This document shows, in pieces, positions 45,032-49,422 of a stretch of DNA of 64,000 nt. The first letter of the stretch is position 1. The number at the start of each line of letters is the position of its first letter. The translations under genes were made by a program, and so were the position numbers. Source of the stretch: Naegleria gruberi. Lineage: Eukaryota. Below the pieces are notes generated by a model, which ran no database searches, was not told the origin of the DNA, and saw only the letters and a program-made list of their open reading frames with translations. Location of the stretch: NCBI GenBank assembly GCA_000004985.1, contig GG738894.1, one strand, 5' to 3'.

Positions 45032-48000
45032 ATGCACAATATTAGTATCTCCTATTGGTGTGTTGTGATATTGTTATTCATCTGTTTTGCACAACCTTTT
45101 TTACTGCAGAGGAGTTGTGTTGTTGTTGCAGAGGAGTATCAATTACATTCCCTGACAGGACATAAAGGAAATGGACAAGATTTTGACAGGACATTCTCTG
45201 CTAAACATGCCTTTCTGGCAGAACCGTGTGGAATTTGTTTTGGACTAAATGATGAAATTTACATTTCAGATTGTGTAAGAAACTATATTTTCAAGATATT
45301 TCCAAATGAAAGTATGATTGTGTTTGGAGGGTTGGGCAGTACGGGATTCAATCAGGATGGTTATGATGTAAAACAAACTCTTTTCGACTCTCCTTCATCA
45401 TTGAGTGTGGCACCTAATGGTGATTTATATATTGCTGATACGAACAATGATAAGATTCGTGTGGTTTCGGCGGAGACAAGATTGGTTTCATCATTGCCAT
45501 TCACTTTCAAACATCCATTGGGAGTGTTTGCTTCCTCTAACAACATGCTTTATATTGCAGGTAAGTTGTCTTTTGCTATTTCATACGAAACCAAAATAGA
45601 TACTGGAAACAATATGATAAAGAAATATGATATTTCCCAAAAGGTATTGACAACTATTGCTGGAGGAACTGGTTATTTGGATGGATCATATGATAATGTT
45701 GATGGAAATTCAATCATTCTTCACTCACCAAAGAATATTCATGTTGTTTCGAGTGGTAAAGATGACACTGTTTATTTCACTGATGAAGAAAGACTAAAAT
45801 TAATTGATAGCAATGGAAAATATCGTGTGATTGCCATTCCTGAACTTAAATCCAATTTGTAAGTGTCCACTGCTTTTTTTATTGTTCATTTTACAATTCA
45901 AATTCACAAAGATATGGAATAGCTGTAACATCAGCGAATGAAATATGGACATCTTCAGATAGACAACATTTCATTCAAATGAATTCCATTGGATCTTCAC
46001 AACCTTCAACAATTATTGGTGAAAAAGATTCTTTTGGATACGAAGGTGATAATTTGATTGATTCCTTTTCGAGTGTGAGATTTTATGAACCTCGATCTTT
46101 GATAGTGAAAGATTCAATTATTCTAGTTATTGATAGGTATAATAATTGTGTGAGAAAGATTGATACACAGAAAAAGACAGTTTCAACATTCTCTGGAGGA
46201 TTAATTAATCATTCATATGGTGAAGACATTCCCAGATTTGAGGTGTCACCACTCAATACATTATATAGACCATTCACATACAAGAATGAGTTGTACTTCA
46301 TAGAGCAAAATTATATAATTAGAAAGGTTTCGAACAATGATGGGCTTATCAAGACAATATTTGGATCGGGTATTCAATTGAGAACTGAAAATTCACCAAC
46401 AAGAGTCTTTAGGTATATCGCAAGTGTTTTCTGTTTTCCAAATGGAGATTTAGTAATTACTAGTTCAAACGAATTCTATATTCTCAATTTAGAAACATTT
46501 ACAATGCAGAAAATTACTAATGTTGGCCCCAAGACAATTCTTTCAATTTCAGCAATAGTTGGCATTGGGAATTCTTTCAAGAATAGCACTATATATTTCT
46601 CCAATGAAGGTACTATTTACAAATATCAGAATGAAAGTGTTCAAGACTCCATGCCAACAGGTTTGGTGCCATCTAACCTTGCAATTTTGAACAATGATTT
46701 ATACTTTTCTACATCAGGATATCTTGTAAAAGTTAATTGGAACGAAACTACTACTTTGATAGCCGTTCCAAGGGGTGTTAACAGGATATCACAAGATTCC
46801 AAAACTGGAAAGATTTATCTTTCCAATACATACAGACTCTACGAAGCAAACGTAAGTAATTTCAGAGTTGAAAAGGTTGCTGGTGTCGATCCATTTGAAT
46901 ATTCTGTTGGGAATAGCATTGATTTTTTTGGATATAGTGGTGAGAATGTGAATGCTAACCAATCGGTAATGTAAGTAGCTCTTTTACAAATGTTATTCGA
47001 AATATTATGTATCAATTAGCTCTGTTTCTTTTATACATGCTGACAATGATAATGTTTATCTCTCTACTGCTTCCTCATACATACGTGTGATATATAATGG
47101 AGTTGTGCGCACTGTTGTGGGAAGTAGTCCATTTTCGAAAAAAACTGGAAGAACCCTATATTCATTTTGTAGAGATCCTATTAATGAAATTATTTACATG
47201 TTGGACAATAATGTGTTGAAGAAGTATGATGAGAAAACAGGAGAAGTTACATCTCTTCTGCCAGCTGTTGAAGTAATTTCATCAAATTCGTTAGTTCAAA
47301 CAAGTGCTTCTCCTTTTTTAGCAATTAAACCAAAGACTGACACGAAAATGATATTCTCAACATTTGATAACATGATATATTTCTCTGATTATTGTAGAAT
47401 ATTACAAATTGACCCAAAAACATTGAAATATCAAAAAGTGGCGGGAAGTATGTGTGGAGATGTAATACCAGATATTCCAGCTATACAATCTCCTTTACCT
47501 ACAAATCCCCCAAAAGGCCTTTCAGTTAATCCTGTAAATGGTGATCTCTACATTAGTTATGCTGATTTTTTTGGAAAGCTTGAAAAGACTTCAGGTATGA
47601 TTCGTGCATTATTTAGGAGTTTTCCATTTAGTCCAATAGAACCAAGTGATGGTCATGTTGGAAATAGCACTTTTATTGGGACGATCTCAACTTCCTATGC
47701 CATTAGTGATCAGACAATTTACTTTAGCACAAATACAAAAATTAGAGTTTTGGAGCTAGCTCAAAATGGTTCATACTACCTCAGAACTATTGTTGGAGAT
47801 GGGAATGGCGGATATTCAGGTGATAATTTACCTGCATTGAGTTCATCTGTACAAAACCCAAAGGCATTCCATGTTAAAAAGAATGGGGATATTGTATTTG
47901 TGGATGAAGGAAATTACCTTATTAGAAAATTTGTAAAAGCAACAGGTCTATTGAAGAATATAGCAGGAAAACCTCGTCAAATGACAGGTTATTATTCAGG

Positions 48001-49422
48001 AGAGTTGAAAGGGCTAGATACAATCTTTATTAATTTGGGATATTCATTTAGTTTCAATGAGAAAACAGAAGAAACTATTTTTTCTGAACACTCAGTTATT
48101 GACACATTCCTTATTAGAAAGCTTTCTCCTATCTGTGAAGGAGGAGCACGCTTCAATTCATTCAATAATACTTGTGACTGTTTGAGTGGATTTTATGGAG
48201 AGAAATGTCAAGCAATTACTTGCAATGGAACAATATCATCAGATGCAACAAGTTGTAATGGAAAGGGAACTTGTGTTGAATTAGATGTTTGTGAATGTTT
48301 GAATGGATTTGAAGGGCAGTATTGTGAAAAATCTATTGACAAGTTGGCAACCGATCAGTCAACAATTTTGATTGTTTCCATTGTCATTCCTATTCTTGGA
48401 GTAGGTCTGATTATCGTGATATTGATTGTAATTATTGTCATAGCATTACTACTTTTCAAAAAGAAGAAATCAAAGGAAATTAATGAAATTGCAACTGCAA
48501 ACATTGTGGAAATGTCAGAATTTCCAAGTAGTTCAATCATTATTTCATCATCACTTGGTTCTGACATGTCAGAAAAGGAAGACATACTTTCTAGGTATAT
48601 TAATATGATTAGAGTTGGGCAAGGCGCATTTGGAAGTGTTTTCAAAGTGACAGATACAAAGAGTGGAAATAAGGTAAAAGCAATCAAGATTGTGAGATTT
48701 GAATCATTCACCGATTTGAACACAATTATGAAAGAAGCATCTCAATTGAGTAATATCAATCATCCAAATATATTGCGAGTGAATGATTATTTCATCACTA
48801 ATGACAATTTGCTTTGTATAGATATGGATTATTATGAGAATGGTGACTTGACAAGGTTTACAAAGAAGGAAATATGTTCTGAAGATATTATTCGCAAGAT
48901 TATGAAACAAATGTTAAGTGCATTGAATTATGTCCACTCAGAATTGTCAATCATTCATAGAGATATCAAACCTTCAAATATTTTTATTCGAAAACTTTCT
49001 GGAAATGACATTGAAGTTGTTTTAGCTGATTTTGGATTGGCTAAAAAGTATCAAGAAATGAAAGGTCAATCCTATGCTGGAACTCCACTTTTTATGAGGT
49101 TTGTTTTATAATTATGCATTAGTTTTAAACTTTTTAAAGTCCTGAAATTGCACTGGGCAGCTCATATTCATTCAATACTGATATTTTCTCACTGGGAGTT
49201 TCGATTTATCAAATCATGACAAAAGACGAAACCATTCCTATTGGAAATTTATTGATGGGAAATCAATTAGCAAATGCAGAAGCCATTCTCACCCAACAAA
49301 TGAAACAGAATACTAGTTACTCGAATGAATTGATTGAAATTGTTATGAAAATGTTGGATAAGAATCAAGAAACTCGATCAAGTGCTGTTCAACTTCTTCA
49401 AATGCCTTATTTCAAACACTAA
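45032..49422 (+). CDS. Receptor-like protein kinase: signal peptide, NHL-repeat beta-propeller ectodomain, 2 EGF-like modules, one TM helix, NEK-like Ser/Thr kinase domain (4 exons, 1415 aa)
   Basis: Exons are 45032..45858, 45912..46970, 47020..49098 and 49140..49422. The introns are 45859..45911 (GTAAGT...AG), 46971..47019 (GTAAGT...AG) and 49099..49139 (GTTTGT...AG). Splicing joins the ORF-track ORFs 44837, 45979, 47087 and 49216 in frame. The first and third of these begin at TTG and GTG, not real starts.

The start is an AAAAAAA-ATG at 45032, followed by a signal peptide (MHNISISYWCVVILLFICFAQPF). There are at least 14 NHL-type blades, for example LSVAPNGDLYIADTNNDKIRVV, YGIAVTSANEIWTS (spanning intron 1), SVNPVNGDLYISYADF and FHVKKNGDIVFVDEGNYLIRKF. 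Two EGF-like modules follow (CDCLSGFYGEKCQ; CNGKGTCVELDVCECLNGFEGQYCE). A transmembrane helix (ILIVSIVIPILGVGLIIVILIVIIVIALLLF) ends in a KKKK stop-transfer.

The kinase motifs are GQGAFGSV, KAIKIV, HRDIKPSNIF, DFGLAK and GTPLFM|SPEIALGS. The last is restored only by intron 3. DIFSLGVSIYQI follows, and the reading frame ends ...MPYFKH-stop. Confidence 0.8.

Follow-up and report, generated by a model that had tools for sequence, protein, structure and literature searches.

A probable type-I receptor kinase of Naegleria gruberi with an NHL-propeller and EGF-like ectodomain, and its Naegleria relatives

Within a 64,000-nucleotide stretch of Naegleria gruberi DNA (contig GG738894.1, assembly GCA_000004985.1; this whole stretch is referred to as the window), positions 45032-49422 of the forward strand constitute a real, intact, single gene that encodes one receptor-kinase protein. 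We consider it probable that the product is a functional type-I single-pass receptor Ser/Thr kinase of a heterolobosean family, composed of a signal peptide, NHL propellers, two EGF-like modules, a transmembrane helix, an acidic and Ser-rich juxtamembrane segment and an orphan RD kinase. Receptor kinases are the chief route by which plants and animals sense their surroundings, and their origins elsewhere in the eukaryotes are poorly charted. Until now, bacteria were the only organisms in which NHL-propeller sensors had been tied to kinases, and their proteins have the opposite orientation; in Naegleria the type-I form makes up a sizeable family, which uses a kinase clade outside the tyrosine kinase (TK) and tyrosine kinase-like (TKL) groups.

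Gene structure and splicing

Four open reading frames (ORFs) on the forward strand cover the locus, namely 44837-45862 (TTG start), 45979-46974 (ATG start), 47087-49111 (GTG start) and 49216-49422 (ATG start). Around the three junctions between them we enumerated every GT..AG interval of 25-200 nt. Eight splice combinations keep the frame open from the ATG at 45032 to the stop at 49422, and all others close it; the eight share the intron 46971-47019, and their other two introns begin at 45859 and 49099. The set 45859-45911, 46971-47019 and 49099-49139, which gives exactly 1415 amino acids (aa) from the ATG at 45032, was preferred over the alternatives because the alignment with homologs agrees at each junction. 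The homologs comprise three N. gruberi paralogs that are collinear with the window gene and map to other scaffolds, XP_002672512 (D2VTR0, here P0001; 65% identity), XP_002670872 (D2VYK1, P0002; 50%) and XP_002673404 (D2VRF4, P0003; 44%), from all of which the window copy is a distinct locus, and two proteins of N. lovaniensis ATCC 30569, each annotated as a single gene (P0251 and P0252; 1405 and 1584 aa; PYSW02000015 and PYSW02000053). At the first junction the window sequence KSNL/YGIAVT (the slash marks the splice position) aligns with QSNLYGIFVT of paralogs, at the second NANQSV/ISVSFI aligns with NATQSAMSINSI, and at the third GTPLFM/SPEIALGS is identical in two paralogs (paralog match GTPLFMSPEIALGS). 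The gene of P0251, whose product shares ~30% overall identity with the window protein, has three annotated introns, two of them within 2 codons of the first and second introns of this set.

A preliminary description of the locus had merged the same four ORFs through three introns into a 1415-aa protein. We reproduce the ORFs, the introns and the length, but that model lacks a fourth intron at 45561-45599, which is in frame, free of stops and 39 nt long, with the ends GTAAGT...ATAG. If retained, it would encode the 13-residue insert GKLSFAISYETKI, which is peculiar to the window copy and has no counterpart in P0002, P0003, P0251 or P0252; its excision deletes GKLSFAISYETKI and recreates the canonical NHL motif LYIADTGNNMIKKYD ('LYIADTGNN'). 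Because the insert lacks a counterpart in the homologs, the ends are canonical and an NHL motif is recovered, the fourth intron was added, which shortens the product to 1402 aa.

The resulting gene has five exons. Exon 1 (45032-45560), whose start codon stands in A-rich sequence, covers the N-terminus with its signal-peptide-like part (aa 1-20, 45032-45091) as well as the first NHL blades, and is followed by the newly added intron 0 (45561-45599), placed by its frame and by the homolog alignment. Exon 2 (45600-45858) encodes further NHL blades. Intron 1 (45859-45911; 53 nt, GTAAGT...AAAG) was placed by frame, the paralog junction and the P0251 intron, and intron 2 (46971-47019; 49 nt, GTAAGT...TTAG) by frame and the P0251 intron; between them lies exon 3 (45912-46970) with degenerate NHL-type blades. 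Exon 4 (47020-49098) contains the membrane-proximal propeller, the EGF modules, the transmembrane helix, the juxtamembrane segment and the kinase up to 'GTPLFM'. Intron 3 (49099-49139; 41 nt, GTTTGT...AAAG) falls within the activation-segment/P+1 region, and exon 5 (49140-49422) supplies the kinase C-lobe and the stop codon TAA. Chance is not a realistic explanation for this arrangement, because an open frame of ~1400 codons runs along one strand in a genome with 33% G+C and is collinear with homologs in two species.

Other candidate elements were considered and set aside. Donor-like motifs inside the exons (46852, 47290, 47448 and 48287) were rejected as introns on the grounds of length, frame or conserved coding sequence, and an upstream in-frame ATG at 44897 has no homolog support as a start. 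A TATATAG at 44979-44985 is a possible promoter element.

NHL propellers and EGF modules of the ectodomain

Pfam profiles for NHL, EGF and Pkinase domains, all three of which the preliminary description had recognised, score above their cut-offs on the spliced product. For the ectodomain we obtained 53.9 bits for NHL (PF01436; cut-off 20), 49.6 bits for TEN_NHL (cut-off 27.1) and 25.7 bits for EGF_2 (cut-off 22.1), together with weaker matches to EGF_TEN and EGF_Teneurin. The whole propeller region spans aa 57-985 (~930 aa; 45200-48127), as delimited by Pfam, by a hidden Markov model (HMM) of single blades and by an AlphaFold2 (AF2) model of a paralog. With the blade HMM, for which canonical NHL repeats served as the seed, six blades are clear (aa 57-85, 108-149, 160-188, 332-350, 394-411 and 881-927) and three are weak, i.e. 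~6-9 blades at the sequence level. Searched on its own, the NHL part retrieves mostly bacterial NHL-repeat proteins at 22-30% identity, and also the N. gruberi protein XP_002677176 described below.

Structure prediction indicates a larger array. AF2 was run on the ectodomain of the paralog P0002 (920 aa) and on the exon-4 part of the window ectodomain (47021-48352). The former is modelled as an all-beta structure of 16 four-stranded units (mean pLDDT 68), and the window protein possesses one N-terminal blade (aa 57-85) more than P0002. The latter (pTM 0.72) shows six four-stranded blades with pLDDT mostly 80-95, predicted to form a membrane-proximal six-bladed NHL-type beta-propeller (47156-48181); an additional blade of low confidence in this model is probably part of the preceding propeller. 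Taken together, the models suggest that the window ectodomain probably consists of ~16-17 four-stranded blades, for which three six-bladed NHL-type propellers fit better than two. The preliminary description had counted at least 14 blades, probably in two propellers; the predicted structures give a somewhat higher number, for which the division into two is the poorer fit, and ~6-9 blades are all that can be recognised by sequence.

Foldseek searches of the Protein Data Bank (PDB) with the exon-4 model returned NHL propellers as best matches: the SOQ1 lumenal domain, teneurin-2/3/4, a teneurin-like protein, Pizza6, NHLRC2 and Thin. Pizza6, reportedly designed from the PknD propeller, reached a TM-score of 0.7 on the target. 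For the whole paralog ectodomain the best fold matches were LRP4, LRP2, LRP6 and the Bacteroides glycan sensor BT4663.

Between the propellers and the membrane, ten Cys residues within aa 988-1051 make up two EGF-like modules (48134-48325), assigned from the EGF_2 match and the Cys positions and conserved in homologs. Module 1 (aa 988-1012; 4 Cys) is partial and module 2 (aa 1017-1051; 6 Cys) is complete.

NHL arrays are also found on another kind of receptor in this organism. XP_002677176 (P0011; 2103 aa), which is encoded outside the window, combines a signal peptide, a very regular NHL array, a GPS-like 'CACNHTTLFT', seven transmembrane helices and a C-terminal RGS domain; judged by this domain order, N. 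gruberi also carries NHL arrays on a protein resembling adhesion G-protein-coupled receptors (GPCRs).

Membrane topology and juxtamembrane motif

In a Kyte-Doolittle hydropathy profile the 1402-aa product displays just two hydrophobic segments, aa 1-~25 and aa 1063-1095. The N-terminal one, MHNISISYWCVVILLFICFA, is signal-peptide-like, and in the homologs P0251, P0260 and P0263, too, a short n-region at the very start precedes a hydrophobic h-region. The sole internal one, with a hydropathy maximum of 3.76, would be the transmembrane helix and is followed by a KKKKSK stop-transfer sequence (48359-48475 for both). These features support a type-I orientation, with the NHL and EGF parts predicted outside and the kinase inside. 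On the cytoplasmic side of the membrane, ahead of the kinase, follows a juxtamembrane motif, EMSEFPSSSIIISSSLGS (48509-48562), that is conserved among the family. Across the family it has the consensus SDFPSD/E-x-S with a Ser-rich stretch behind it, its core being [DE][FY]P[ST] and the Ser-rich sequence; the F, P and S columns are invariant among the paralogs, and no relative that we examined has lost the core, not even the divergent P0292 and P0307.

Kinase domain

The Ser/Thr protein kinase domain (48608-49413), identified by Pfam Pkinase and its motifs, is split by intron 3. The Pkinase profile (PF00069) matches at 7e-56 (190 bits; cut-off 31.7) and is covered from position 5 to 263 of 263. 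All catalytic motifs are present: the G-loop GQGAFGSV, the Lys of VKAIK, the alpha-C Glu (MKEAS), HRDIKPSN (48956-48985), DFG (49028-49045) and SPE, the last in GTPLFM/SPE across intron 3 (49079-49146). SPE is assembled by splicing, the codons TTT ATG AG / T CCT GAA being joined over the 41-nt intron as the preliminary description had proposed, and the joined sequence matches two paralogs. By its motifs the domain is a catalytically complete RD kinase. The other parts recognised in the preliminary description, i.e. the signal peptide, the two Cys-rich EGF-like modules, the single transmembrane helix with its KKKK stop-transfer and the complete Ser/Thr kinase, are likewise all recovered here, the hydrophobic segments by hydropathy and the first EGF module as a partial one.

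The same description had called the kinase NEK-like, and this assignment did not hold. Searching the PDB with the single kinase sequence returned NEK1 (103.2 bits), CDPK (101), SLK (99.4), STK25 (99) and ULK3 (98.2), and a profile of ten family kinases returned STK24/MST3 (129.6), ULK1 (124.8), NEK1 (124.0), NEK2 (121) and CDPK (119.8). Among the best 60 PDB matches of either search there were no TKL or TK chains, apart from one EGFR-labelled entry with the single sequence; the catalytic loop HRDIKPSN is of the Ser/Thr type, and the kinase falls outside the TKL group. A kinase search of the sequence databases returned a Naegleria clade at >=192 bits, followed by matches at <=114 bits and ~33% identity that are a mixture of proteins labelled bacterial, ciliate, Aurora, NEK, CAMK and AGC; no N. 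gruberi NEK is among the best 120 matches. The proteins returned by this search seem to be confined to ~0.5-2 times the query length, so that the long paralogs are not among them.

For phylogenetic placement we used a neighbour-joining (NJ) tree of 30 sequences and 253 columns with 100 bootstraps, the reference set being small and drawn from the search matches. The family is monophyletic (100% for the core, 92% with the divergent members added) and separate from the NEK-labelled sequences, from a CAMK-like clade and from a bacterial clade; no grouping with NEK occurs at >=50%. From these sequence comparisons the safe statement appears to be that the kinase is an orphan clade whose membership in the NEK family is not supported. 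A bacterial origin of the kinase was considered and rejected: high bacterial scores, obtained with a profile that included the transmembrane and juxtamembrane parts, fell to ordinary values with a kinase-only profile, and the bacterial sequences form a separate clade.

One family member, P0331 (2166 aa), has 'SIHGNIKTSN' in place of the HRD motif and 'GSGRTFKV' where the G-loop should be, and its activation segment is degenerate. Its kinase looks dead, and a pseudokinase receptor may possibly exist within the family.

A receptor family in Naegleria

All three N. gruberi paralogs are labelled 'predicted protein' and are uncharacterised, and each of their models is incomplete in a different way. 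P0001 has lost its N-terminus and starts at the equivalent of Met299; P0002 is devoid of the second EGF module and of the transmembrane helix; P0003 terminates with 'GTPL/CKFLHNWSI' (the slash preceding the divergent end), which we infer to be a read-through of the intron homologous to the SPE-creating intron 3. Several kinase-only N. gruberi models, P0121 and P0122 among them, start with 'MIISSS', which is the juxtamembrane motif, and are probably truncated models of further receptors. The N. gruberi reference models of this receptor family thus look systematically defective. With such faulty annotation, the family could escape kinome and receptor counts.

Relatives beyond these were collected in an exhaustive phmmer search of exon 4 against 1.84 billion representatives, in which 21 proteins with the family kinase are among the top 146 matches; the two N. 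lovaniensis proteins of 1405 and 1584 aa belong to this set. At least 16 of these 21 cluster representatives carry NHL blades, often EGF modules and one transmembrane helix, always upstream of the kinase, and several also carry a signal peptide; NHL blades following the kinase were found in none of these at least 16 representatives. The ectodomains range from 2 to at least 16 recognisable blades and the proteins reach lengths of up to 2807 aa. The kinase clade also includes an ankyrin-kinase of Willaertia magna and, as the only representative found in the pathogen N. fowleri, a partial kinase. The top match of the phmmer search, P0246 (673 aa), is a metagenome ORF-style call of exon 4 of the window locus itself and the only database entry that covers this locus. 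Its contig (ENA ERZ929261, run ERR1078381, PRJEB11402) is 99.5% identical to window positions 46307-49590 over 3284 nt, and the metagenome therefore contains an N. gruberi-like strain. The same metagenome contributes P0307, an intronless divergent family member of 1284 aa with a separate NHL ORF upstream.

The window protein has every feature of this unnamed family, namely the collinear NHL array, EGF modules, the transmembrane helix, the SDFPS-type motif and a kinase of the clade. The occurrence of the same NHL-transmembrane-kinase combination in related genomes, which the preliminary description had suggested looking for, is thus documented in N. lovaniensis and in the at least 16 representatives, and the whole seems to be a Naegleria-wide receptor family that is as yet undescribed. 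Our literature search, which did not extend to the 2010 genome paper, found no paper combining 'Naegleria' and 'NHL repeat', and nothing relevant on receptor kinases of Naegleria. The earlier suggestion of an undescribed receptor class agrees with this result, but the homologs have already been public as predicted proteins, and receptor kinases of protists are a known kind.

Neighbouring genes

The window opens with an unbroken stretch of N (1-41860), which may be an assembly gap, masking or padding; real sequence extends over 41861-64000 (22 kb, ~33% G+C). Three ORFs in it match N. gruberi proteins exactly, which identifies the source as N. gruberi NEG-M: 43399-44172 on the reverse strand (XP_002672953), 53628-55094 on the forward strand (XP_002672885, a Thr/Lys-rich low-complexity protein with no Pfam domain) and 57500-58651 on the forward strand (XP_002672887). 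Directly downstream of the receptor gene and convergent with it lies a 377-aa ORF (49527-50660, reverse strand) of near-identical 24-aa RNI-type leucine-rich repeats (LRRs; 'ISEMKQLTSLNI..N.IG.EGAKY'; Pfam LRR_6 1e-45), whose exact sequence was not found in the protein collection. The same search was negative for the exact sequence of a 762-aa ORF at 60383-62668 on the forward strand (possibly extending to 63449), which starts with a hydrophobic segment, has a weak match to an NMT1/THI5-like (solute-binding-like) domain and ends in a long hydrophobic half; the latter is probably multi-pass, and this ORF may be another receptor-like membrane protein.

A Val-rich antisense ORF of 239 aa (53726-54445, reverse strand) that overlaps XP_002672885 is most likely an artefact of repeat composition. 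On the reverse strand at 55105-56022 we found an ORF for a class-I S-adenosylmethionine (SAM)-dependent methyltransferase (Methyltransf_11, 3e-16). An ENA record is the only entry with this exact sequence; it is missing from the N. gruberi proteins at NCBI, which suggests a reference model that deviates from the simple ORF.

Alternative explanations

Several points weigh against reading the locus as a functional receptor kinase gene. The splice sites were placed by frame and homology only, and the signal peptide and transmembrane helix were called from hydropathy and the positive-inside rule. The AF2 models are of moderate confidence (mean pLDDT 68-72), and the number of propellers is uncertain because model quality is poor in the central part of the ectodomain. 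The N. gruberi reference set returned no protein model specific to the locus, and exact look-ups of the 1402-aa product and of a 1117-aa version starting at Met299 were empty; such a model might nevertheless exist, as three UniProt accessions (D2VSK9-D2VSL1) are numbered between those of the neighbouring genes, D2VSK8 and D2VSL2. Finally, the comparison of two strains yields 4 synonymous and 7 nonsynonymous changes and one 3-nt indel, and these changes are too few to demonstrate purifying selection. The missing reference model, the metagenome exon-4 call as sole database entry and the 7:4 ratio, which shows no constraint, could also be read as signs that this is not one functional gene but a pseudogene, or a gene for a secreted NHL protein adjoining a separate gene for a transmembrane kinase. 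We consider this very improbable: five open exons join in frame via canonical GT..AG introns of 39-53 nt, N. gruberi has collinear homologs, those of N. lovaniensis carry single-gene annotations, and the one indel that separates the strains keeps the frame. Moreover, exon 4 has neither a plausible ATG of its own nor a signal peptide, its ORF opening at a GTG inside a blade.

Two further alternatives accept the gene and concern what it does. A NEK-family kinase captured into a receptor could link extracellular sensing to functions of the cell cycle or the cilium. NEK1 is indeed the top PDB match of the single sequence, but it is ahead of CDPK by 2 bits and of SLK by 4 bits only, and the family profile places MST3 and ULK1 above it. 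SPE (instead of APE) and HRDIKPSNIF resemble NEK motifs, but the window has 'GTPLFM' where NEK kinases have 'GTPYY(M/L)'. Motifs of the type HRDxKPSNIF and SPE occur in eIF2-alpha kinases as well, e.g. PKR and PERK. NEK-labelled proteins do occur among the distant kinase matches, but only as one of several groups at ~33% identity, and the NJ tree resolves the family as a clade of its own. NEK kinases are soluble proteins that begin with the kinase domain and carry regulatory or coiled-coil regions towards the C-terminus, and this layout is not found here, where the kinase is the C-terminal cytoplasmic domain. Capture of a NEK kinase is accordingly an unlikely origin in our view. Alternatively, a receptor of the same architecture could serve primarily in adhesion or self-recognition, as teneurins do, with the kinase reporting contact and not a diffusible or prey-derived ligand. 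Besides NHL itself, the best Pfam matches of the ectodomain are the teneurin NHL and EGF models, the structural searches rank teneurin NHL propellers near the top, attachment to laminin is a function of the PknD sensor (PMC3322341), and the NHL array of P0011 stands on a protein that recalls adhesion GPCRs. On the other hand, the window protein lacks the YD shell and other teneurin-specific parts, and the divergence of the ectodomains across a large family is more like a diversification for varied ligands. We regard a primary role in adhesion as a serious but less likely alternative.

Possible mechanism and significance

If the product is a type-I receptor kinase, as we favour, its mode of action could be as follows. 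The propeller faces would bind an extracellular ligand, with the EGF modules serving as a rigid stalk; bacterial prey, the substrate or other cells could present this ligand in the form of a glycan or a protein. Dimerisation or re-orientation driven by the ligand would draw the kinase domains together, and these could phosphorylate each other in trans within the activation segment (S/Y/T in 'KGQSYAGT') and perhaps also at the Ser-rich juxtamembrane motif. Phosphorylation would in turn switch on downstream signalling.

In a wider and more speculative sense, heterolobosean amoebae may have independently invented a large receptor-kinase family out of bacterial-type NHL arrays (possibly acquired from bacteria), EGF stalks and an orphan non-TKL kinase, for pattern recognition or for the recognition of prey or self. 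We offer this as a tentative idea that is on balance less probable than not. If true, the family would be a Discoba counterpart of the plant receptor-like kinases and the animal receptor tyrosine kinases, in a tractable free-living relative of the pathogen N. fowleri. In any case the family supplies candidates for surface receptors with which Naegleria could sense prey or adhere.

Comparison with known systems

The closest precedent in composition is PknD of Mycobacterium tuberculosis and the PknD-like bacterial kinases, which join a Hanks-type kinase through one transmembrane segment to an extracellular six-bladed NHL sensor that binds host laminin and mediates adhesion (PMC3322341; example P0024). 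Their order is the reverse, with the kinase N-terminal and the propeller C-terminal; the one bacterial NHL-kinase match that we inspected, P0024, is likewise kinase-first, and the likeness to PknD in opposite topology that had been pointed out in the preliminary description is a fitting one. PknD furthermore has one propeller instead of about three and neither EGF modules nor a signal peptide, and bacterial PknD-type kinases do not group with the Naegleria family in the NJ tree.

Teneurins share with the window protein the combination of EGF modules and an NHL propeller in the ectodomain, as reflected in the TEN_NHL and EGF_TEN matches and the top fold matches. They are, however, type-II proteins with a YD shell, an FN-plug and toxin-like domains, and without a kinase; Pfam found no YD/RHS or Tox-GHH match in the window protein, which places it outside the teneurins. 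LRP4, LRP5/6 and LRP2 are type-I receptors in which tandem six-bladed propellers alternate with, or are followed by, EGF modules, but their blades are of the YWTD kind and they have no intrinsic kinase, so that at ~10% identity the resemblance is an analogy of fold and layout.

With respect to the overall plan, protists are already known to possess single-pass receptor Ser/Thr kinases whose ectodomains are specific to the lineage (PMC10463195). The transmembrane kinases (TMKs) of Entamoeba and the LRR-TMKs of oomycetes are examples, both being single-pass type-I proteins in which a lineage-specific ectodomain is combined with a eukaryotic protein kinase domain; Naegleria, NHL ectodomains and Discoba are not mentioned in that cross-kingdom survey. 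The receptor kinases of plants and animals belong to the TKL or TK group, whereas the window kinase lies outside both. The Bacteroides hybrid two-component sensors BT4663 and BT4673 differ in being bacterial, in having a histidine kinase output and in using a different propeller family, but they couple tandem extracellular propellers through the membrane to a kinase in a similar manner, give a high fold match to the ectodomain and provide a precedent for the sensing of glycans.

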